Assembly (NCBI GenBank): GCA_964648775.1
Contig: CAZYNA010000003.1
Span: 18,807 to 82,806, forward strand
Length of the DNA stretch: 64,000 nt
Origin: an uncultured Proteiniphilum sp.
GTDB taxonomy: Bacteria; Bacteroidota; Bacteroidia; Bacteroidales; Dysgonomonadaceae
Direction: 5' to 3'
Shown: positions 6,376 to 55,246 of the stretch, piece after piece
Layout: each line of letters opens with the position of its first letter
Numbering within the stretch: position 1 is the first letter of the stretch
Program-made: the position numbers and the translations under genes
The notes under the pieces: generated by a model
The model's database searches: none
What the model was told of the DNA's origin: nothing
The model's input: only the letters and a program-made list of their open reading frames with translations

Positions 6376-7845
6376 TTAAGGCATCTCCGGTAGTTTGAAA
6401 CCGTTCTTATAAGTATGCTTAATCATTTCTTTTGCATATTCCTGAGCATTTACAGGATCCGACCAAGTCTTATCGAATGTTGGGTGACCATCAGTAATTT
6501 TGAAGCCATCTTCAACAATTGTTCTGATAGTAGCATCATTAGGAATATTAGTAAATTCCATATTAGCACCATCCCAATGAAGTTCCTGGTTCAAGCTCTG
6601 TAATCTAACAGCAAGAACACCCATAACAACCATTTCGTTGAAAGGTCCTGCTTCTGAGAAAGGAGATGCAGTTTCAACACGGTTTTCAGGAGATTCTTTA
6701 CATGCACGTACCCAATCCATCTCGTGTGAAAGTGTAACTTCACGCTGAGTTTTTGGAGAATTAGGTTTACGACCCGATACTAACCATGGGTTAACGCCAT
6801 AGCAACCGCAGATAAGAGTATCTTTAGTTCCGTGGAAGATAACACCACCACCCTGATCGTTCAAGTTTTTACCTGCAGGTACTCCTTCAGGACGCATTGG
6901 CTGTAAGCCACCATCGTACCAGTAAACCTCAACTTCAGGCATAGCAACCTTTGGCAGGTTGTCGCGAGCAGGGAATACATATTTAACTTGCTGGGCAACA
7001 GGTGCACAGTCTGTTAATAACATTGTTGAAGAACCTTGTACTTTAGTTGGATATCCAAGATTCAAGCCTTTAAATACCGGATGCAGGATATGACAAGCCA
7101 TATCACCAAGAGCACCTGTACCAAAATCCCACCATCCACGCCAGTTCCATGGGTGATAAATTTCATTGAAAGGACGCTTGTTAGCAGGCCCGATAAAAAG
7201 ATCCCAATCCAATGTTTTTGGAATACGGTGAGTTTCTTTAGGAACATTTAATCCCTGTGGCCAAATAGGACGGTCTGTAAATGCTTCAACTTTTGTAACT
7301 TCACCAATCACGCCATCAGCAATCCAATCGATCACCTGACGAACTCCCGAACCTGATGATCCCTGGTTACCCATACTGGTTGCAATTTTATGTTTCTCGG
7401 CAAGTCTTGTCAACAAACGAGATTCATAAACACTATGTGTTAAAGGCTTCTGAACGTAAACGTGCTTGCCCATAGTCATAGCATCTGCTGCAATAATAGC
7501 GTGTGTATGGTCGGCTGTTGCAACTACAACACCATCTATTGAATTGCCTAACTCCTCATACATTTTTCTGTAATCGTAGTATTTCTTGGCATTGGGATAT
7601 TTCTTAAATACATTTTCGCTGTATCTCCAGTCAACATCACAAAGTCCGATGATATTTTCACTTTGTAACTGGTTAAGGTTTGCATTTCCCATTCCACCTA
7701 CTCCAACACCTACGATGTTAAGTTTATCGCTTGGGGCTTTATAGCCCATGCTTTTCCCTAGTACCGTAGAAGGTACGATAGTTAAACCGGCAGCAGCCAT
7801 AGCACCGGTTCCTAAAAATTTTCTTCTCGAAATGTTTGATGACAT
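6376..7845 (-). CDS. Gfo/Idh/MocA-family oxidoreductase with twin-arginine signal peptide
   Basis: 489 aa. TAT motif SRRKFLGTGAMAAAG. Rossmann motif NIVGVGVGGMG. Confidence 0.85.
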   Translation of the reverse strand: MSSNISRRKFLGTGAMAAAGLTIVPSTVLGKSMGYKAPSDKLNIVGVGVGGMGNANLNQLQSENIIGLCDVDWRYSENVFKKYPNAKKYYDYRKMYEELGNSIDGVVVATADHTHAIIAADAMTMGKHVYVQKPLTHSVYESRLLTRLAEKHKIATSMGNQGSSGSGVRQVIDWIADGVIGEVTKVEAFTDRPIWPQGLNVPKETHRIPKTLDWDLFIGPANKRPFNEIYHPWNWRGWWDFGTGALGDMACHILHPVFKGLNLGYPTKVQGSSTMLLTDCAPVAQQVKYVFPARDNLPKVAMPEVEVYWYDGGLQPMRPEGVPAGKNLNDQGGGVIFHGTKDTLICGCYGVNPWLVSGRKPNSPKTQREVTLSHEMDWVRACKESPENRVETASPFSEAGPFNEMVVMGVLAVRLQSLNQELHWDGANMEFTNIPNDATIRTIVEDGFKITDGHPTFDKTWSDPVNAQEYAKEMIKHTYKNGFKLPEMP

Positions 7846-14866: not shown

Positions 14867-17800
14867 TTAATATTCATCCCAACTCTTTATTTCTACATCC
14901 TCTAAATCCATCGTGCAAAAGGCAGTGATAAATGCACTTGCAAGTCTTGCATTGGTAATAAGCGGAATATTGTAGTCTATTGCTCCCCTGCGAATAATGT
15001 ATCCGTTGGTTAGCTCTCTGCGTGTTACATCTTTAGGAATGTTTATTATCAAGTCGAATTCCTTATTGGCAATCATTTGCTTAATGTTGTTCTCACCATC
15101 TTCATCGGGCCAGTTTACATCGGTTGCAGCAATGCCGTTGTCTTGTAGAAATTTTTGAGTGCCATGACTTGCAAAGAGTTTATAACCCTTCTTGCTAAGC
15201 AATTTACAAGCGTCAAGGAGGTCTACTTTCGACTTCATTTCTCCTGATGATATAAGAATTCCTTTCTTAGGGATATCATAGCCCACCGATAGCATCGATT
15301 TTAAAATTGCATCCGAAAAGTCCTCCCCTATACAGCCCACTTCGCCGGTTGACGACATATCAACCCCCAGTACAGGATCCGCATTCTGAAGTCGGGAGAA
15401 TGAGAATTGCGACGCTTTAACACCAATATAATCAAGGTCGAATACCGAGCTATCGGGTTTGTCATACTCTGCTCCCAGCATTATTCGAGTGGCAGTTTCA
15501 ATAAAATTATGCTTCAATACTTTAGAAACAAACGGAAATGATCGTGATGCTCTCACATTACATTCAATCACCTTTATCTCATTATTTTTAGCAAGATACT
15601 GTATATTAAAAGGACCACTTATATTAAGCTCTTTAGCAATTATCTTTGAAATTTTCTTCACCCTGCGCATAGTCTCGAAGTATATCTTCTGAGCAGGAAA
15701 TACAAGCGTTGCATCTCCGGAGTGAACCCCGGCAAATTCAACATGTTCTGATATTGCATACTCTACTACTTCTCCTTCTTTAGCAACAGCATCAAACTCA
15801 ATCTCTTTGGCATTTTGCATGAAGCTGGATACTACAACCGGATGCTCTTTCGAAACATTCACTGCCATTTTCAGGAATGTCTCCATCTGGTCTCTGTTAT
15901 AGCATACATTCATAGCAGCACCCGAAAGCACATAAGAAGGACGAATTAAAAGTGGAAATCCTACCTCATTAATAAATGAGTCGATCTCCTCCAGACTGCT
16001 TGCTTCTGTCCAGCGCGGCTGATCAATCTCCAGCTCGTCGAGCATTGCCGAGAATTTATTACGGTTTTCGGCTCTGTCAATCGACAATGGCTGTGTTCCC
16101 AAAACAGGCACATCTTGTCTGTGCAGCTTCATTGCCAGGTTATTAGGAATCTGACCACCCATCGATAAAATAACACCTTTTGGCTGTTCCAGATCAACTA
16201 CATCCAGCACACGCTCAAAAGTAAGCTCATCAAAGTAGAGCCTGTCGCACATATCATAGTCGGTAGAAACAGTCTCAGGGTTATAATTTATCATCACAGA
16301 TGCATAACCCAAATCCCTTGCGGTCTGTACGGCATTAACCGAACACCAGTCGAATTCTACCGACGAGCCAATCCTGTATGCTCCTGACCCTAATACTATA
16401 ACCGACTCTCTTTCGTCTTTTCTTGGCACATAGGCCTCTTCATCACCATAAGTAAAGTACAGATAGTTCGTATCGTCGGGATTTTCTGAAGCTACTGTAT
16501 TAATTCTACGTATCTTAGGTGTTAAACCTAAACTCTTTCGATGACCTCTTACTCTATTTTGTTCATTTTCAAGATTCCCGTCCGGCTCTTCCACAAAGCG
16601 CGCTATCTGGAAATCTGAGAAACCAAGCCTTTTAGCCTCTTTAAGCACATCGGCAGGCAGATCTTCAATCTTGTTATATCCCGAAATTACTTTAGAGTAG
16701 TTGTATATATTTTCGAGCTTCCCTAAAAACCAGGGGTCAATTTTTGTCAGTTCTTCAATCTTCTCAACAGTATAGCCTTTATAAAAGGCGTCGGCAATGG
16801 CAAATATGCGAAGATCGGTAGGGTTGGAAAGCGATTCCTCAACATTATCAAAGGTGATTTCCCTGTTTCCTACAAACCCGTGCATTCCCTGCCCTATCAT
16901 GCGCAATCCTTTCTGAATAATCTCTTCAAACGACTGCCCAATTGACATTACTTCACCAACCGACTTCATAGATGAGCCAATCTCATGACTTACTCCATAG
17001 AATTTATTTAAATCCCATCTCGGAATCTTAACAATCATATAATCTACTTTCGGAGCATAATATGCTGAGTTTGATGTTCCCATCTCGCCAATCTGATCAA
17101 GAGTATATCCCAGAGCAAGTTTAGTAGCAACAAATGCCAGCGGATATCCCGATGCTTTTGATGCTAGTGCGGAAGAACGGCTCAGTCTGGCGTTTATCTC
17201 TATAATTCTGTAATCGTTGGTCTCTGCGTTAAAAGCATACTGTATGTTGCACTCTCCAACTATTCCTATATGACGTACAACCTTTTGTGCAACATCTTCA
17301 AGCAACTCTACCTGATCGTCACTTAAAGTGATAATTGGTGCAACCACAATACTTTCTCCGGTATGAATGCCAAGCGGATCGAAGTTCTCCATTGGAACAA
17401 CAGTAAAGCAGTGATCGTTTGCATCGCGTATAACCTCAAACTCAATTTCTTTCCACCCTTTCAGGCTCTCTTCAACAAGAATCTGATTTGAAAATGAGAG
17501 TGCACTTTTACATAATTCCTTAAACTCATCCTCGTTATCACATATGCCCGATCCCTGACCCCCAAGAGCATACGCAGAGCGTACCATAATAGGGAATCCT
17601 ATCTCATTTGCTGCTTTTAACGCATCTTCCAAACTCCCAACAGCTATAGATTGAGGTGTTTTAGCTTCTATTTCATCAAGTTTCTTTACAAACAGATCAC
17701 GATCTTCCGTAATCATTATAGATTCAACTGATGTTCCGAGAACTTTTACATCATATTTATCTAAAACACCCGACTGATATAATTCTGTTCCACAGTTTAA

Positions 17801-18079
17801 TGCTGTTTGTCCACCAAAAGCAAGCAGTATACCATCGGGTTTTTCTTTTGCTATAACTTTTTCTACAAAATAGGGAGTAATTGGCAAAAAATAAACTTTA
17901 TCTGCCACACCTTCAGATGTTTGAACAGTTGCAATATTCGGGTTTATAAGTATCGTTTCTATACCCTCTTCACGCATTGCTTTTAGAGCTTGCGAACCTG
18001 AGTAGTCAAATTCGCCCGCCTGTCCAATTTTCAGGGCACCCGAACCCAGCAAAATAACCTTCTTGATTGATTGATTCAT
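14867..18079 (-). CDS. carB: carbamoyl-phosphate synthase large subunit
   Basis: 1070 aa with duplicated ATP-grasp halves and an MGS-like C-terminus. No carA is adjacent in this window. Confidence 0.95.
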   Translation of the reverse strand: MNQSIKKVILLGSGALKIGQAGEFDYSGSQALKAMREEGIETILINPNIATVQTSEGVADKVYFLPITPYFVEKVIAKEKPDGILLAFGGQTALNCGTELYQSGVLDKYDVKVLGTSVESIMITEDRDLFVKKLDEIEAKTPQSIAVGSLEDALKAANEIGFPIMVRSAYALGGQGSGICDNEDEFKELCKSALSFSNQILVEESLKGWKEIEFEVIRDANDHCFTVVPMENFDPLGIHTGESIVVAPIITLSDDQVELLEDVAQKVVRHIGIVGECNIQYAFNAETNDYRIIEINARLSRSSALASKASGYPLAFVATKLALGYTLDQIGEMGTSNSAYYAPKVDYMIVKIPRWDLNKFYGVSHEIGSSMKSVGEVMSIGQSFEEIIQKGLRMIGQGMHGFVGNREITFDNVEESLSNPTDLRIFAIADAFYKGYTVEKIEELTKIDPWFLGKLENIYNYSKVISGYNKIEDLPADVLKEAKRLGFSDFQIARFVEEPDGNLENEQNRVRGHRKSLGLTPKIRRINTVASENPDDTNYLYFTYGDEEAYVPRKDERESVIVLGSGAYRIGSSVEFDWCSVNAVQTARDLGYASVMINYNPETVSTDYDMCDRLYFDELTFERVLDVVDLEQPKGVILSMGGQIPNNLAMKLHRQDVPVLGTQPLSIDRAENRNKFSAMLDELEIDQPRWTEASSLEEIDSFINEVGFPLLIRPSYVLSGAAMNVCYNRDQMETFLKMAVNVSKEHPVVVSSFMQNAKEIEFDAVAKEGEVVEYAISEHVEFAGVHSGDATLVFPAQKIYFETMRRVKKISKIIAKELNISGPFNIQYLAKNNEIKVIECNVRASRSFPFVSKVLKHNFIETATRIMLGAEYDKPDSSVFDLDYIGVKASQFSFSRLQNADPVLGVDMSSTGEVGCIGEDFSDAILKSMLSVGYDIPKKGILISSGEMKSKVDLLDACKLLSKKGYKLFASHGTQKFLQDNGIAATDVNWPDEDGENNIKQMIANKEFDLIINIPKDVTRRELTNGYIIRRGAIDYNIPLITNARLASAFITAFCTMDLEDVEIKSWDEY

Positions 18080-18164
18080 TTATGTATAATTTCAAATAGT
18101 TTGAGTTGTCCTTTAACCTGCTGTATATTGTATACTTCTTACATCAGAATCTTGATTCAGGACT

Positions 18165-18223
18165 CAAAAAAAATCGGAAATCCCGTTTGTTTAGCTTTTA
18201 GCTTTAACTCCGAAATTTCCGAT
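18165..18223 (-). terminator. intrinsic terminator inside the carB 5' leader (candidate attenuator)
   Basis: Minus strand: AUCGGAAAUUUCG (18223-18211) pairs with CGGGAUUUCCGAU (18185-18173). This is 13 bp including two G-U pairs, with a 25-nt loop, followed by U8 (18172-18165). It lies ~85 nt upstream of the carB ATG. Confidence 0.65.
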
Positions 18224-18266
18224 CTCTGTACATTTGAGCGTAATAAAAACGTGCTGCATTCTGCAT
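18204..18266 (-). CDS. candidate carB leader peptide MQNAARFYYAQMYRDRKFRS
   Basis: A 20-codon ORF on the minus strand. Its last 7 codons (GAT CGG AAA TTT CGG AGT TAA) overlie the 5' arm of the leader terminator. 4 of 20 residues are Arg. An alternative ATG 7 nt downstream opens a different frame, MQHVFITLKCTEIGNFGVKAKS. Confidence 0.3.
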   Translation of the reverse strand: MQNAARFYYAQMYRDRKFRS

Positions 18267-18283
18267 ACAATATTTTTAGAACA

Positions 18284-18291
18284 CAAAGATA
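18284..18291 (-). promoter_or_regulatory. -7 box TATCTTTG (minus strand), candidate carB promoter
   Basis: Exact TAnnTTTG match, ~18 nt upstream of the leader ORF ATG. Confidence 0.45.
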
Positions 18292-18343
18292 GAAAAAAAT
18301 AACCGAAACTTTACTCATATTTATCACTTATTTAAAACGTATA

Positions 18344-18443
18344 TTATTCATACATTATTCGGGTTTGTTCGAACAAGGTTCGAACAAGGTACGAATCAGG
18401 TATGAACCAGGTATGAATAAAATATGAATAAATTACGAACAGA
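18344..18443 (+). repeat. phased-repeat module, copy A: one inverted unit, a 13-bp spacer, then 7 direct 11-bp units (GTAYGAAY core)
   Basis: 18367-18443 reads GTTCGAACAAG GTTCGAACAAG GTACGAATCAG GTATGAACCAG GTATGAATAAA ATATGAATAAA TTACGAACAGA in exact 11-bp register. TTATTCATAC lies at 18344-18353. The module is homologous to the reverse complement of 49470-49569. Confidence 0.9.
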
Positions 18444-18562
18444 TATCGGGTTTGCAACAATCAAAAAAAACCAAAATCGCGCAATAATAACACAAGAGTC
18501 ATTTGATTTGCATTTCTCATAAATATTGATTATAATATCTATATATAGTTGAAGAGGGTTTG

Positions 18563-18599
18563 CCGGAATAGACTTATTGTCTTTATCCGGGTTTTTTTT
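18563..18599 (+). terminator. orphan intrinsic terminator in the leader of the GT4-GH130-GT4 operon
   Basis: CCGGAATAGAC (18563-18573), loop TTATT, GTCTTTATCCGG (18579-18590; one bulge and one mismatch), then G and T8 (18592-18599). There is no plus-strand gene upstream. The operon ATG is 55 nt downstream. Confidence 0.6.
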
Positions 18600-18654
18600 G
18601 AATATACAGACCTTTGGATTAACACTAAACAATCGACATAACAAATAAGTAAAT

Positions 18655-23459: not shown

Positions 23460-24152
23460 CTATAAAGAGAAACGTTTGCCTTGCTTTAAGAATGCATTAT
23501 ATTTTTTAGTGTTGAATTTATAATAAAATGCACCTCTTTTGGAGCTCTCTTTTTCTTTTTCATCCAGTTTATCAAGTATATCCATTGAAGCAAGTCTTTT
23601 ACGGAAATTCCTTTTATCTAAAGGCATTTGATAAATTGCTTCATACAGATCCTGTAGAGCCGGCATAGTAAACTTGTCATTAAAGAAGTGAAATGCAATT
23701 GGTTGAAAAGAAACTTTATACTGAAGAAGTTTTTTTGCATCCTCTACCATCTCGTTATGGTCGAATACAAGTTTAGGGAGATGCTTTATATTTATCCATT
23801 TGGCATCAAATTTCTTGGCAAGCGATGTGTTGAATTTTTCTGTCTGAACTAATGCATAAAAAGCAACGGATACCACCCTGCCTCCTGCATCTCGTTCTAT
23901 TTCTCCGTATGCACCAACCTGTTCCATGTATACATCTTTTTGCTGAGTATAACGGTAAAGTACTTTTGCAGCTGCCTGATTCAAGCTTTCGCCGGCTTCC
24001 ATAAATCCACCCATTAGCGACCACTCATTTTTCATTGGTTCTACCGGTCTTCTTGTAAGTAATACATGTAATTCCTTATCATGAAAACCAAATATAATAC
24101 AATCTACAGCTACAAGAAATAGATCATTATTATTGTAATATGTCTCTAACAT
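23460..24152 (-). CDS. Nudix-domain protein with C-terminal winged-helix (NrtR-like transcriptional regulator)
   Basis: 230 aa. Nudix fold region WSLMGGFMEAGESLNQAAAKVL. The C-terminal ~80 aa resemble the NrtR wHTH (…LQDLYEAIYQMPLDKRNFRKRL…). Confidence 0.65.
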   Translation of the reverse strand: MLETYYNNNDLFLVAVDCIIFGFHDKELHVLLTRRPVEPMKNEWSLMGGFMEAGESLNQAAAKVLYRYTQQKDVYMEQVGAYGEIERDAGGRVVSVAFYALVQTEKFNTSLAKKFDAKWINIKHLPKLVFDHNEMVEDAKKLLQYKVSFQPIAFHFFNDKFTMPALQDLYEAIYQMPLDKRNFRKRLASMDILDKLDEKEKESSKRGAFYYKFNTKKYNAFLKQGKRFSL

Positions 24153-46569: not shown

Positions 46570-49158
46570 TTAATTATGGAAGAAAACAGTATCATCAATT
46601 GCATCAATTGTTATAGGTTTAGCTCTATCAATCTTACCAGATAGCAAATCTTTAGATAACTGATTCAGTACTTTTCTCTGTATAACCCGCTTAACCGGTC
46701 GTGCACCAAACTCAGGATCAAACCCCACAATAGAAATACTTCTTACTGCTTCATCGCTATATCTCAGATCGATACCAGACTCAGCCAAAGATTTGGCAAC
46801 ATTATTAAGTTGCATTTTCACAACCTCTGCAATTTCACTTTCACTAAGCGGAGAAAACATAATTATCTCATCAATACGATTTAAAAACTCAGGTCTTATA
46901 GTTTTCTTCATCATATCCATAACCAGATTTTTTGTTTTCTCTATAATATCCTCCCTGTTAGATGGCGTAATCCTTTCAAAATTCTCACGAATCATGCTAG
47001 ACCCCATGTTAGAAGTCATAATAATAATCGTATTCTTAAAATTCACCACCCTACCCTTGTTATCCGTCAAACGCCCATCGTCTAACACCTGAAGAAGAAT
47101 ATTAAATACATCAGGGTGCGCCTTCTCTATCTCATCAAAAAGCACCACTGAGTATGGTTTACGACGGATAGCTTCAGTAAGCTGACCACCCTCATCATAC
47201 CCAACATACCCGGGAGGCGCACCAATCAGTCGGGTTGCACTAAATTTCTCCTGATACTCACTCATATCAATGCGAGTCATCATATTTTCATCATCAAATA
47301 AATACTCTGCAAGCGCCTTAGCCAATTCTGTTTTTCCAACACCTGTTGTGCCAAGAAAAATAAACGAACCGATAGGACGCTTTGGATCACTCAGTCCGGC
47401 GCGACTACGTCTTACTGCATCTGCAACGGCAGTAATTGCCTCATCCTGACCAACCACTCGTTTGTGCAATTCATCTTCAAGATTGAGCAACTTCTCACGC
47501 TCACTCTGCATCATCTTACTCACAGGAATACCGGTCCAGCGAGAAACCACATCTGCAATATCCTCAGCATCAACCTCCTCCTTAATCATTGCACGACTAC
47601 CCTGCCTTACATGAAGCTCAGTCTGAAGCGCATCTATCTCATTCTCTTTCTCCTTAATTTTGCCATATCTGAGTTCAGCTACTTTTCCATAATCGCCCTC
47701 ACGCTCAGCACGATCAGCCTCAAACTTAGCATCTTCAATATCTATTTTAGCTTGCTGAATTTTGTTGATTAGTTCCTTCTCCGACTGCCACTTAGCCCTG
47801 TAATCAGCCTCCTCTTCTTTCAGCTCTTCAATCTGCTTAGTGAGTACATCCACCTTTGCCTGATCATTTTCACGCTTAATAGCCTCACGTTCAATCTCCA
47901 ACTGCTTAACTTTCCTTATCAGCTCATCAAGCTCTTCGGGAACAGAATCCACCTCCATACGCAGTTTTGCTGCAGCCTCATCCATTAAGTCGATTGCCTT
48001 ATCCGGCAAAAACCTGTCGGTGATATACCTGCTCGAGAGCTGAACCGAAGCAATAATTGCCTCATCTTTAATTCTCACTTTATGGTGATTTTCATAACGC
48101 TCCTTCAATCCTCTTAAAATTGAAATACTATCAGCTTCTGAGGGTTCATTCACCATAACCATCTGAAAACGACGCTCAAGCGCTTTATCCTTTTCGAAAT
48201 ATTTCTGATACTCATCAAGAGTTGTTGCACCAATTGCTCTTAACTCACCCCTTGCAAGCGCAGGCTTTAGAATGTTGGCTGCATCCATAGAGCCTTCAGA
48301 TTTTCCGGCACCCACAAGAGTATGAATCTCATCAATAAACAAAATTATCTCACCATCCGATTTGGTAACCTCATTGATAACCGATTTTAGTCGCTCTTCA
48401 AACTCACCCTTATACTTAGCACCTGCAATCAAGGCCCCCATATCAAGCGAATAAACCTGCTTACTTTTAAGATTCTCAGGTACATCACCCCTCACAATTC
48501 TATAGGCCAAACCCTCTGCAATAGCAGTTTTACCCGTTCCGGGCTCACCAATTAAAATGGGGTTATTTTTTGTTCTCCTACTCAATATCTGCAGAACCCT
48601 TCTGATTTCTTCGTCCCTGCCAATTACCGGATCAAGCTTACCTTCACGAGCCCTATCAATCAGATTAACAGCATATTTGCTAAGCGACTGATAAGTTTCT
48701 TCGGCAGTCTGACTTGTTACCTTTTCTCCTTTTCTCAGATCAGTAATTGCTGCTTGCAGCTGATTTAATGAAATACCTGAATCCATCATCATTTTAGATG
48801 CACTATTTTTTTCATCGAGTATCCCCAATAAAAGATGCTCAACCGACACAAACTGATCGCCCATTTTATTAGTAAAATCGGCTGCTTTCTGAAAAACAGC
48901 ATTAGTATCTCTACTCAACATCGGATCTCCTCCCGAAACACGCGGAAGAGATTCAATTTCAGCATCAAGCACTGTTTCTAAGTTCTGGGCATTAACTCCA
49001 AGCTTGTTGAAAAGGAAGCTCACAATATTATCACCCACAATCATAACACCTTTAAGTATGTGAGTAGGCTCAATCATTTGCTGACTATTACCCTGTGCAA
49101 TTTCAATGGCTTTTTGTACAGCTTCCTGTGCTTTTATTGTAAAATTATTAAAATTCAT
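46570..49158 (-). CDS. clpB: ATP-dependent chaperone ClpB
   Basis: 862 aa. Two AAA+ modules (GEPGTGKT and GTTGVGKT) with a long coiled-coil middle domain. Confidence 0.95.
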
Positions 49159-49469
49159 ATTCTTGTTATTTCTTTATTTAAAAATCTAATATCTCTTTTT
49201 GCATAATTCCATTCTCAAGATTGATTCACTTATAAAACAATAATAAATGAACTATAGTTGAGAATTTATGAATCATTTACCGTATGTAATAAACTTCATT
49301 ATCCCTATCAGTCTGAAAACACCATTAGTCTCAGATTCACAACAATATAAAGTCAAAATCTTTGCCAATCGCAAAATGTGACGTTTTGTCATACCACAAT
49401 GCTAATACAAATGTTTTTTGAGACTCAGGCTTACATTATGTCTATTATTTATTGATACATTCTTCGCGT

Positions 49470-49569
49470 TTGATTCATATTTCATTCATATTTGGTTCAT
49501 ACCTCGTTCATACCTCGTTCATACCTCGTTCGTACATGGTTCGAACAAGCATAAATAAAGAATGAATAA
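49470..49569 (-). repeat. phased-repeat module, copy B (inverted relative to copy A)
   Basis: The RTTCRWA cores on the plus strand start at 49473, 49484, 49495, 49506, 49517, 49528 and 49539, spaced exactly 11 bp apart. The reverse complement reads TTATTCATTC-N13-GTTCGAACCAT GTACGAACGAG GTATGAACGAG GTATGAACGAG GTATGAACCAA ATATGAATGAA ATATGAATCAA. Confidence 0.9.
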
Positions 49570-49647
49570 GGTAAGTAATAACATAGAGTAATGTACCACT
49601 CAATTAAGTGTTAAGTTTGGTATGATAAAGAGAAGACAAAAATTTAT

Positions 49648-49655
49648 TATCTTTG
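49648..49655 (+). promoter_or_regulatory. -7 box TATCTTTG upstream of proS
   Basis: Exact TAnnTTTG match, 30 nt before the preferred proS ATG (49685). Confidence 0.45.
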
Positions 49656-54998: not shown

Positions 54999-55246
54999 AG
55001 ATACATTTTTATATGCAATTATTGTTAATTAGTTTAAACAAAATGAGTATAGACTAACAACTGATTTTTATCGACTAAAAAGGGTTATTTATCCACAAAC
55101 AACTAAATCAGACCTCTAAATACTTATATATTTGCGCTTTAGATAATTAAAACTTGGTTAAACTCAGCAATAAGTATTAAACATTTGTAGCTCCCACTTG
55201 TCATAGAAGCAGATATATTTATTATTCATGTTTTAAATTTCACATT

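Follow-up and report, generated by a model that had tools for sequence, protein, structure and literature searches.

Two bipartite arrays of 11-bp units in an uncultured Proteiniphilum: candidate copies of a dispersed intergenic repeat of Bacteroidota

Introduction

Several bacterial systems place short DNA units at about one helical turn. Plasmid centromeres include parC/ParR of plasmid R1, with ten 11-bp repeats, tubC/TubR, with seven 12-bp repeats, and the omega heptad arrays. At Escherichia coli oriC, opposed arrays of low-affinity DnaA 9-mers are spaced 2 bp apart, giving an 11-bp period and outward oligomerisation. Operators of OmpR/PhoB-type regulators, such as the pho, ArcA and TorR boxes, are built from 6-7-bp direct repeats 10-11 bp apart on one DNA face. 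ArcA sites hold two to five direct repeats at 11 bp (PMC3798270). RprY of Porphyromonas gingivalis shifts the promoters of clpB, groES and dnaK in EMSA (PMC3646045).

Other repeats are dispersed through intergenic DNA. REPs are G+C-rich single hairpins of 20-40 bp that carry GTAG or CGTC tags (PMC3733652). BrickBuilt, a minisatellite-MITE of P. gingivalis, is always intergenic and has 19 copies, one of them beside clpB; its units are 23 nt long, number 1-23 and share a single orientation (PMC4596501). Here we describe two modules of 11-bp units in a 64-kb window (the whole stretch of DNA that we analysed) from an uncultured Proteiniphilum sp., a member of the Dysgonomonadaceae close to Fermentimonas, and compare them with these systems.

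Results

Two homologous modules of inverted and direct units

A sequence-only reading of the window had claimed seven contiguous 11-bp direct units with the core TWYGAAY at one place (copy A) and again, inverted, at a second (copy B). Both arrays read exactly as claimed, with seven units each at 18367-18443 on the plus strand and 49470-49546 on the minus strand. Three consecutive TWYGAAY cores at 11-bp spacing are matched 11 times in the window, always inside arrays A and B, and never in 100 shuffles, while the two-core pattern is matched 13 times against 0.11 expected. TRF and a separate repeat search also recovered both arrays, and an HMM built from modules A and B found no third module copy in the 64-kb window. 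That the two are homologous modules is borne out by a gap-free alignment of 107 nt at 77% identity and by a common period, arm order and gradient of units from centre to distal end; they stand 31 kb apart in unrelated spacers. The arrays are non-coding, as had been claimed, and an independent assembly has no gene call over either module; the view of the 11-bp period as one helical turn is upheld.

The lead-in to the direct units had been described as one inverted unit and a 13-bp spacer. We find instead that in both modules the lead-in is a decayed array of inverted units in 11-bp register with the direct units, and therefore that each module is bipartite. The innermost lead-in units are two contiguous inverted units (TTATTCATACA and TTATTCGGGTT in A, TTATTCATTCT and TTATTTATGCT in B). 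Two or three further decayed slots lie outside this pair (18311-18343 in A, 49570-49591 in B) and can be aligned between the copies given one whole-unit indel, the short arms of A and B differing by one whole unit. A degenerate eighth direct unit follows 3' of the array in both copies. The resulting module measures ~135-145 bp and has four to five inverted and seven to eight direct units diverging from the centre. Its parts in the two copies are as follows.

Copy A short arm, 18311..18365, minus strand: five 11-bp slots, TTACTCATATT, TATCACTTATT, TAAAACGTATA, TTATTCATACA and TTATTCGGGTT; slots 1, 4 and 5 can be recognised as inverted units (their reverse complements being ..ATATGAGTAA, TGTATGAATAA and AACCCGAATAA); based on the register display, slot-by-slot identity to B with one whole-unit indel, and the inverted-repeat pairs I1, I2 and I4.
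Copy A long arm, 18366..18443, plus strand: seven units from 18367, GTTCGAACAAG (twice), GTACGAATCAG, GTATGAACCAG, GTATGAATAAA, ATATGAATAAA and TTACGAACAGA.
Copy A degenerate eighth slot, 18444..18454, plus strand: ATATCGGGTTT, a weak assignment with 3/11 positions matching the slot in B.
Copy B degenerate eighth unit, 49459..49469, minus strand: ACGCGAAGAAT, with CGAA kept; the direct-repeat family D1 reaches 49452.
Copy B long arm, 49470..49546, minus strand: seven units, GTTCGAACCAT, GTACGAACGAG, GTATGAACGAG (twice), GTATGAACCAA, ATATGAATGAA and ATATGAATCAA.
Copy B short arm, 49548..49591, plus strand: four 11-bp slots, in minus-strand reading TTACTCTATGT, TATTACTTACC, TTATTCATTCT and TTATTTATGCT.

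In strain L132, the last slot of the copy B short arm reads TTATTCATGCT, a better inverted unit. The only inverted repeats in the modules are the units themselves (83% and 73%). Copy A had also been described as bracketed by a direct repeat, CGGGTTTG. The repeat is real, though it actually reads TCGGGTTTG; it is absent from B and at chance level, an exact 9-mer pair at this distance being found in 42% of spacer shuffles.

The differences between the copies are unevenly distributed along the unit. Position 9 differs in 7/7 A/B unit pairs and T2, G5, A6 and A7 in none (permutation P = 4e-5), the core-sparing pattern that would be expected of a protein-recognition motif. Adjacent units are identical in two places (A1 = A2 and B3 = B4), which together with the whole-unit indel shows slippage. 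The modules could accordingly be read as a neutral minisatellite, a slippage-born array copied once by accidental duplication and having neither binding protein nor function, and such a reading would also fit the lack of conservation of the array in sister genera and the generic 11-bp tandem repeats matching the pattern that are common in unrelated genomes and viruses. We consider it improbable. The units are imperfect, yet they have invariant positions common to copies that differ at 23% of sites, and seven units, arm order and gradient are kept in both; the length is constant between two strains, the phased inverted arm is specific to Bacteroidota, and arrays whose units are all identical are rarer in Bacteroidota (9/63) than elsewhere (28/61 and 47/63).

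Genomic setting

Copy A lies in the spacer between carB and a GT4-GH130-GT4 operon and copy B in that between proS and clpB. Both are divergent promoter spacers, and the long arms point toward GT4 (A) and clpB (B), that of copy B ending about 100 bp upstream of a conserved clpB promoter block. By our reading of the sequence, a distance of ~20-60 bp separates the short arms from the carB and proS -7 boxes (TAnnTTTG). Because both copies occupy divergent promoter spacers near these boxes, the modules may still have a regulatory role here.

One such role would be as the operator of an OmpR/PhoB winged-helix regulator, for example an RprY-like stress regulator, whose head-to-tail dimers would sit on the direct repeats, one turn apart, and control clpB and GT4 and perhaps carB and proS. 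The 7-bp cores at 11 bp centre to centre in both copies fit the geometry of such sites, as had been pointed out, and the operator would account for substitutions that spare the core and for the placement of both copies between divergent promoters with long arms toward clpB and GT4; the clpB promoter is also a target of RprY in P. gingivalis (PMC3646045). However, the number of units is odd and an inverted arm is added, the array is at least 100 bp distal to the conserved clpB promoter, and the literature searched did not contain a published RprY motif. Furthermore, no gene for an OmpR-type regulator (Response_reg/Trans_reg_C) is present among the 29 window ORFs scanned, with the 19 ORFs beyond 35.5 kb partly covered, and no response-regulator gene was found among the array neighbours checked in other genomes.

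ArgR had been suggested as a second regulator on account of the TGAAT half-sites and the adjacent carB. We took an ARG box to be an 18-bp imperfect palindrome with TGAAT-N4-ATTCA, usually paired. No TGAATWWWWATTCA-like palindrome (at most 2 mismatches) occurs in either module (18300-18460 and 49450-49600), the window-wide palindrome count is at chance (17 observed versus 15.7 expected), copy B sits at clpB/proS and not at carB, and the array that relatives carry by carA-carB has a TATAAG core. An ArgR operator linked to carB is effectively refuted by these results.

We also considered readings in which the nucleic acid itself is the active form. In the first, a transcribed small RNA or leader, or a cruciform, would act through a hairpin. 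Copy A folds far better than shuffles (z = -6.0 and -6.7 for the two strands) and the Prolixibacteraceae versions described below are long near-perfect palindromes, but copy B gives z = -0.6 on one strand and a marginal -2.1 on the other, and there is no Rfam match at the gathering score in the window and 10 related loci, matches at E<=1 being chance-level. The modules lie upstream of the -7 boxes and the clpB promoter, so they are probably untranscribed spacer, and we regard a hairpin-based role as very unlikely. In the second, intrinsic curvature or anisotropic flexibility, arising from phased TA/CG/TG steps and A-runs, would make the module an upstream promoter element or a wrapping site. 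T-A-Y-G, with its two flexible pyrimidine-purine steps, is conserved in every unit at 11-bp phasing, and two or three short phased A-runs are found at the distal end. The A-runs, however, are confined to the last two or three units, and curvature alone leaves the invariant G5-A6-A7, the lineage-specific cores (TATGAA versus TATAAG) and the inverted arm unexplained, making this reading highly improbable.

Two further candidates were rejected. DnaA-box clusters are not present: TTATCCACA-like 9-mers (at most 1 mismatch) are absent from the modules and number 22 in the window against 21.5 expected, and GC skew tracks gene orientation without an origin-like switch. Nor do A and B mark off a mobile or invertible segment of 31 kb: core genes lie between them, including tig, clpP, clpX, recQ, dxs, trkAH and clpB. 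A second assembly has the same A-to-B arrangement on one contig. No partition or replication-initiator genes adjoin the modules, whose neighbours are chromosomal housekeeping genes.

Conservation in close relatives

In a second strain (99.5-99.8% identical), both modules are present with seven units each and unchanged long arms; the flanks differ by 44 and 118 substitutions per 22 kb (0.2-0.5%). Unit number thus does not vary, in the manner of a VNTR or contingency locus, between the two strains compared. With seven units constant in both copies of both strains, the VNTR reading fails, as do the ArgR, DnaA and RNA readings. Both copies are filled and identical in this sole other strain and absent in other genera, whose spacers are unalignable.

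An operator specific to carB and proS, or to clpB and GT4, is not supported by comparison with sister species. Fermentimonas caenicola, Fermentimonas sp. and Proteiniphilum saccharofermentans (L120-L126) lack an array, or so much as a two-unit site, upstream of clpB, yet all three keep the proximal clpB promoter, and one relative (L135) has no array upstream of the GT4 operon. In Fermentimonas loci L137-L141, the GT4 spacer by carA-carB holds a different inverted-plus-direct 11-bp array with the core TATAAG. The same core, with different spacers, recurs downstream of an HlyIII-family gene in two Fermentimonas species, a position that in L124 is a convergent spacer. There are no TATAAG arrays in the window and no TWYGAAY arrays at the Fermentimonas loci.

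Related arrays across Bacteroidota

A genome scan shows that TWYGAAY-core 11-bp arrays occur in many Bacteroidota, in convergent, tandem and divergent spacers and beside unrelated neighbours. Of 61 Bacteroidota arrays, 30 have two or more inverted cores no farther than 66 bp away on the 5' side and 2 have them on the 3' side, compared to 5' counts of 0/58 in other phyla and 2/62 in viral contigs; these bipartite statistics are dominated by ~13 genomes, five Prolixibacteraceae supplying 15/25 bipartite loci. The inverted cores of Bacteroidota arrays are spaced 11, 22, 33 or 44 bp. Two Prolixibacteraceae MAGs have at least six loci per genome, and Puia, Paludibacteraceae and an uncultured Bacteroidia MAG have three to four. 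The units vary by lineage: TATAAG in Fermentimonas, TAYGAATCACC in Paludibacteraceae, TTCGAATAAYC palindromes in Prolixibacteraceae and TACGAACGANA in Puia/Chitinophagaceae. The Prolixibacteraceae versions have several copies per genome, conserved termini and long near-perfect palindromes, and locus L061 shows the inner CGAA / outer GGTATGA order of the window modules. The window element is linked to the arrays of other families by common core, period and polarity, the first of which was dictated by the search pattern. A family-specific scan of metagenomes found no relatives of the window element, its five matches all being unrelated perfect repeats.

The genes beside these arrays point away from a shared regulon. 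No homologues of ClpB, CarB, ProS or GT4/GH130 were found by tblastn at 119 array loci of other genomes, no neighbour family recurs among 218 clustered flanking proteins, and the translations of ten genes downstream of arrays are unrelated (dxs, an endonuclease, tdh, rpsL, NUDIX, truA and others). A heat-shock regulon involving clpB and RprY was rejected on these grounds. Judged by eye and not by family search, ten clustered neighbours resemble ABC ATPases, ECF sigma factors and biotin carriers.

An association with promoters is also not supported, because arrays of the same architecture lie in convergent spacers beside unrelated genes, both in the sister genus and across Bacteroidota; 38 Bacteroidota arrays divide into 12 convergent, 16 co-directional and 10 divergent. 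Of the earlier OmpR/PhoB-type reading, the seven cores at 11 bp stand, while conservation at orthologues and a regulator among the scanned ORFs are both missing. The arrays differ from OmpR/PhoB operators in combining an inverted arm with seven to eight repeats, in being unconserved at orthologues and in having relatives in convergent spacers. We therefore view such an operator as doubtful and as a weaker rival than the dispersed-element reading. The sequence-only reading had looked to further copies and to upstream conservation: related copies do exist elsewhere, and none is conserved at clpB orthologues.

Discussion

Based on these data, we propose that A and B are lineage-specific copies of a dispersed bipartite Bacteroidota intergenic repeat and not a conserved carB/GT4-GH130-GT4/clpB/proS operator, a reading to which we assign a probability of about 0.5. 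Each module is probably a phased protein-docking array. In this model, the recognition core n-T-W-Y-G-A-A-Y-n-A-R would recur in every unit and so at each turn of the helix. A sequence-specific DNA-binding protein would load at GTTCGAAC, the palindromic centre, which is G+C-rich, and oligomerise outward on one DNA face, over progressively weaker A+T-rich units. Array length may change through whole-unit slippage, new copies may come from a transposition-like or recombinational process, and effects on the adjacent divergent promoters would be incidental or secondarily acquired.

As with MITEs, several copies stand at unrelated intergenic loci, two in 64 kb and more in other genomes. For the window element we found no transposase, no empty site, no target-site duplication and no terminal inverted repeats other than the units, and none matching a resident IS. 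An IS5/BrickBuilt-like terminal inverted repeat at 18607 is chance-level and in the wrong orientation, and no such terminus encloses the element.

Among dispersed repeats, BrickBuilt (with PgRS and MITE464) is similar in its Bacteroidales host from a neighbouring family, in its species- or lineage-specific imperfect tandem units with conserved and variable positions, in its multiple copies per genome and in its intergenic location by housekeeping genes unrelated to one another, such as clpB, a glycosyltransferase gene and tRNA synthetase genes (PMC4596501). Compared by unit inspection only, the reverse complement of the 23-nt brick, CATATGAGAGGATACTATGGTCT, contains TAYG twice, with the TATG/TACG polymorphism of the window units; we take this as resemblance only. 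The window element differs in having 11-nt units and two divergent arms, and in lacking a leader, a tail or an IS5-like terminus. With REP, BIME and REPIN sequences it has in common that these are short, lineage-specific, dispersed intergenic repeats, often in convergent spacers, of alternating orientation and bound by a host protein, but REPs are not arrays of 11-bp units.

Plasmid centromeres also have 7-10 contiguous units of about one turn, sometimes of mixed orientation, and theirs are coated by a polymerising protein. They sit beside par genes on plasmids, whereas the window arrays are dispersed among chromosomal housekeeping genes, and blastn found no similarity of the modules to plasmid or phage records. 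The DnaA arrays of oriC likewise have two opposed arms at an 11-bp period from a centre. The modules, in contrast, have no DnaA box (at most 1 mismatch) and no skew switch, they are two copies 31 kb apart, and the T2 that is essential in a DnaA box corresponds to position 9 of the window unit, which varies freely.

A wider reading, which we think unlikely, is that the arrays form an undescribed Bacteroidota-wide class of bipartite CGAA/TAYGA cis-elements, read by a conserved and fast-co-evolving protein, with BrickBuilt as a derived relative. This protein would assemble a nucleoprotein filament or wrap, which may serve chromosome organisation, insulation of transcription units or propagation of the element. 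Its co-evolution with the units would explain the joint genome-wide shift of the core, TATGAA in this species and TATAAG in Fermentimonas.

Gut and anaerobic-digester communities are very rich in Bacteroidota, whose non-coding DNA is poorly charted. For the window, the practical result is that neither a carB/ArgR nor an OmpR-type regulatory site should be annotated at the arrays. If a phylum-wide element with a dedicated binding protein does exist, it would be a new class of dispersed repeat beside REP/BIME and MITEs, would offer a handle on an unrecognised DNA-binding activity, and would account for stretches now passed over by gene finders and regulon reconstructions, or mistaken by them for operators.

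Two bipartite arrays of 11-bp units

Copies A and B, two modules about 31 kb apart and inverted to each other, each carry seven contiguous direct 11-bp units with the core TWYGAAY; re-reading the sequence agrees with the sequence-only reading on this point.

Arms of the two modules in the window
18367-18443, + strand: copy A direct run; units GTTCGAACAAG (twice), GTACGAATCAG, GTATGAACCAG, GTATGAATAAA, ATATGAATAAA, TTACGAACAGA
49470-49546, - strand: copy B direct run; units GTTCGAACCAT, GTACGAACGAG, GTATGAACGAG (twice), GTATGAACCAA, ATATGAATGAA, ATATGAATCAA
18311-18365: copy A short arm in 11-bp register; slots TTACTCATATT, TATCACTTATT, TAAAACGTATA, TTATTCATACA, TTATTCGGGTT
49591-49548: copy B short arm in 11-bp register; slots TTACTCTATGT, TATTACTTACC, TTATTCATTCT, TTATTTATGCT

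The lead-in had been described as one inverted unit plus a 13-bp spacer; instead, it is itself an array in 11-bp register. Its centre-proximal slots are reverse-complement units (TGTATGAATAA, AACCCGAATAA), and the outer slots of A and B align at 7 and 8 of 11 positions, given one whole-unit indel. In both copies the seven are followed by a degenerate eighth direct unit. The modules are therefore bipartite, each with 4-5 inverted units (short arm) and 7-8 direct units (long arm) diverging from a centre marked by the palindrome GTTCGAAC, and span about 135-145 bp. The drift of the core is indeed common to both copies, as an outward gradient TTCGAAC, TACGAAC, TATGAAC, TATGAAT. The repeat TCGGGTTTG bracketing copy A is real, but 42% of shuffles contain a pair of this kind, and copy B lacks the bracket.

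Three TWYGAAY cores at 11-bp spacing match 11 times in the window, always inside copies A and B, and never in 100 shuffles; two cores match 13 times versus 0.11 expected. TRF and a second repeat search report the same arrays, and an HMM built from both modules found no further copies in the window. The arrays are non-coding, as had been argued: an independent assembly has no gene call across either copy, and the only ORF touching copy A (82 codons, TTG start) is on the opposite strand.

Substitution, folding and strain comparison

The 77-nt direct runs of A and B differ at 16 positions. Unit position 9 differs in 7/7 unit pairs (P = 4e-5 for one position being hit seven times), T2, G5, A6 and A7 never differ, and the remaining differences are T/A or C/T at degenerate core positions. 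This core-sparing pattern could reflect purifying selection acting on a recognition core, or else local homogenisation; that the arrays are neutral slippage DNA is a weaker and rather unlikely reading. Hairpin potential relative to shuffles is strong in copy A (z = -6.0 and -6.7) and is not conserved in copy B (-2.1 and -0.6), and Rfam gave no family match; a structured RNA or cruciform is very improbable. Intrinsic DNA curvature, one of the explanations originally offered for the 11-bp units, is equally improbable.

A contig of the same species (NODE_531, ENA, 61.5 kb) contains both modules, arranged as in the window. Copy A is identical there (surrounding 22 kb, 99.47% identity), and copy B is identical except for one SNP in the short arm, TTATTTATGCT to TTATTCATGCT (surrounding 22 kb, 99.8%). 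Unit number is thus constant in the two strains compared, which rules out a hypervariable contingency repeat.

Genomic setting

Copy A lies in a 575-bp spacer between carB (14867-18079, -) and the GT4-GH130-GT4 operon (18655 onwards, +), and copy B between clpB (46570-49158, -) and proS (+). The long arms face GT4 and clpB, the short arms carB and proS. The Bacteroidetes -7 promoter box, known from Bacteroides promoters, is TAnnTTTG; its reverse complement, CAAAGATA, occurs at 18284-18291 and 49648-49655, the predicted -7 boxes of carB and proS, respectively, and the modules therefore appear to sit between divergent promoters. A TAnnTTTG box also precedes carA in relatives. We rejected the 31-kb interval between the copies as a mobile element, since it contains core genes.

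A hairpin (CCGGAATAGAC/GTCTTTATCCGG) followed by T8 at 18563-18599, 56 nt before the start codon of GT4 and absent from the terminator-scan output, may terminate or attenuate a leader, or may mark where a small upstream transcript ends; L135 and L137, two loci from relatives, have an analogous hairpin and T-run at the equivalent place. In relatives (L135-L141), carA and a second carB lie between the 1070-aa carB and the GT4 operon. Both are missing in the window, where a remnant of the carA promoter and 5'-UTR is kept (GTGCTGCATT...CAAAGATA, 18251-18291), so that the carB leader is about 200 nt long (region 18080-18291). A NUDIX plus winged-helix regulator of the NrtR/AraR type (23460-24152, -) adjoins GT4-GH130-GT4 and galK-MFS-galM, likewise in L135 and L137, and is a more plausible dedicated regulator of the GT4/gal cluster than the array.

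Orthologous spacers in relatives

The ClpB protein of the window is 88-90% identical to those of Fermentimonas, Lascolabacillus and Proteiniphilum, an affinity that assigns the organism to Dysgonomonadaceae. We compared clpB loci of Fermentimonas caenicola (L120, L121), Proteiniphilum saccharofermentans (L122, L123) and Fermentimonas sp. (L124-L126), and found neither an array nor a two-unit site upstream of clpB; the upstream neighbour is an HlyIII-family gene or an integrase, not proS. A proximal promoter block is kept in these loci (about 2860-2960) and in the window, across four Dysgonomonadaceae lineages.

The clpB promoter block in the window
49391-49331, - strand: whole block, between the array and clpB
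49391-49379, - strand: inverted repeat TGACAAAACGTCA (TGAC-N5-GTCA)
49368-49352, - strand: TTGGCAAAGATTTTGAC
49345-49331, - strand: TTGTTGTGAATCTGA

In its middle part the block is similar to a sigma-54 -24/-12 element (TGGCA-N6-TTGA) with GA replacing GC. We consider the block a candidate heat-shock control region; heat-shock regulation is poorly known in Bacteroidota.

The upstream neighbour of the GT4 operon in relatives is carA-carB. The 198-bp spacer in L135 (GT4 79% identical) has no array. In Fermentimonas sp. (L137/L138 and L139-L141) the GT4 spacer holds a different 11-bp array laid out as in the window: two inverted and two direct units form a near-perfect palindrome of 50 bp, and two further direct units follow. 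Its unit, T[CG]TATAAG[GC]NA, and the window's [GA][GA]T[AT][TC]GAA[CT]NA align in register, and by reading the freely variable position coincides. Two Fermentimonas species have the TATAAG core again 3' of the HlyIII-family gene, with unrelated spacers and with phased inverted TTACTT units on its 5' side; in L124 the array lies there between convergent genes. No TATAAG array occurs in the window and no TWYGAAY array in the Fermentimonas loci. Each lineage therefore has its own core, at several unrelated loci, and promoters are not the sole setting. As 31 kb separates the window's two copies, and as in Fermentimonas, too, it is the core and not the spacers that the loci have in common, the pattern favours a putative trans-acting reader of the core.

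The regulatory interpretation first proposed is largely unsupported. An OmpR/PhoB-type operator would fit the repeat geometry and the location between promoters, and RprY of P. gingivalis shifts clpB, groES and dnaK promoter fragments (PMC3646045); however, the arrays are not conserved upstream of orthologous genes and related arrays occur at places without a promoter, leaving this explanation doubtful. An ArgR operator, also suggested earlier, is scarcely credible, and no ARG box was found in either module. A DnaA-box cluster or origin was rejected: DnaA boxes are absent from both modules and there is no origin-like skew.

Two other repeats were seen in the window. An intergenic repeat at 55048-55104 (21-bp period, 2.7 copies) has a perfect DnaA box (TTATCCACA) at 55089 and no origin-like GC-skew switch nearby, and a 33-bp tandem repeat (1498-1574; 2.4 copies, 91% identity) lies upstream of tyrS (1688-2983).

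Distribution across Bacteroidota

A search for four TWYGAAY cores at 11-bp spacing, a pattern that imposes the core, gave at least 119 loci when run on a single genome from each species. About half of the matches listed are from Bacteroidota (Prolixibacteraceae, Paludibacteraceae, Puia/Ferruginibacter/Chitinophagaceae, Sphingobacteriales, Tannerella, Parabacteroides, Bacteroides, Salinivirgaceae), with 3-6 loci each from several genomes; in other phyla and in viral contigs, most hits are perfect, microsatellite-like repeats or runs of TTTGAA. Arrays in which every full unit is the same make up 9/63 of the Bacteroidota arrays listed versus 28/61 in other phyla and 47/63 in viral contigs.

Bipartite layout (at least two inverted cores, RTTCR, within 66 bp) among the matches listed
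Bacteroidota: 5' side 30/61, 3' side 2/61
Other phyla: 5' side 0/58, 3' side 3/58
Viral contigs: 5' side 2/62, 3' side 0/62

Among these matches, the bipartite layout is specific to Bacteroidota, where inverted cores are spaced by 11 bp (62 pairs), 22 (46), 33 (27) and 44 (11); about 13 genomes contributed bipartite loci, and five of them, Prolixibacteraceae MAGs, account for 15/25. The Prolixibacteraceae version is a palindrome of units of about 150 bp with conserved termini (GCCGGGTACTTGG...) at unrelated sites. L061 (Prolixibacteraceae UBA6029, 7330-7550) is a nested palindrome of about 220 bp combining two unit types, five TACGAATTTGT units per side in the inner arms and GGTATGACAGT units in the outer, and its centre-to-distal order is that of the window. 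Units of Ferruginibacter (L014) and Sphingobacteriales (L002), GGTWCGAACNA, match those of the window beyond the imposed core too.

Bacteroidota arrays listed lie in 12 convergent, 16 co-directional and 10 divergent contexts and 3 times inside ORFs. Their downstream genes are unrelated, no neighbour family recurs, and homologues of clpB, carB, proS and GT4 are absent from all array loci listed; reading ten clustered neighbour proteins by eye, with no family search, revealed no response regulator. Separately, a 1.2-kb metagenome contig (L130, Ga0114967_10167251, 1-1208) is built nearly throughout from short 11-bp arrays whose GGTAYG/CGTACC cores run in both orientations (GGTATGAACAT and GGTATGGAAAT are among the units) and looks like a satellite-like expansion of this kind of unit.

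Comparison with known systems

The nearest described system is BrickBuilt of P. gingivalis, a species-specific minisatellite within a MITE. All of its 19 copies are intergenic; one neighbours clpB, and others neighbour tRNA-synthetase and glycosyltransferase genes (PMC4596501). Read as its reverse complement (CATATGAGAGGATACTATGGTCT), the 23-nt brick has TAYG twice per 23 nt, and brick and window units share a TATG/TACG polymorphism; this resemblance is a lead, with no evidence of homology. However, BrickBuilt's 23-nt unit, single orientation, long leader and tail, and IS5-type termini were not found in the window element. In the copy A spacer, CAGACCTTTGGA (18607-18618) has 2 mismatches to the IS5/BrickBuilt terminal repeat GAGACCTTTGCA; we rejected it as an element terminus, its window-wide count being at chance and its orientation not enclosing the array. 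In geometry the element also resembles parC/ParR arrays and oriC, with its two opposed arrays of low-affinity DnaA sites. Its geometry is like that of ArcA/PhoB multi-repeat operators (PMC3798270), too. When tested for membership, the element failed for each of these three classes. The literature searched yielded no account of bipartite 11-bp arrays from Bacteroidota; one may exist.

Nature of the element

Based on these data, we propose, at roughly even odds (about 0.5), that copies A and B are lineage-specific copies of a dispersed bipartite repeat element, probably a phased array that docks a putative DNA-binding protein. Such arrays would grow by whole-unit slippage and spread by a transposition-like or recombinational route, and any influence on neighbouring genes would be incidental. 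There is a modest chance that the arrays mark an undescribed protein-DNA system found across the phylum. The finding is real and unusual, and fits best among dispersed repeat elements of intergenic DNA.
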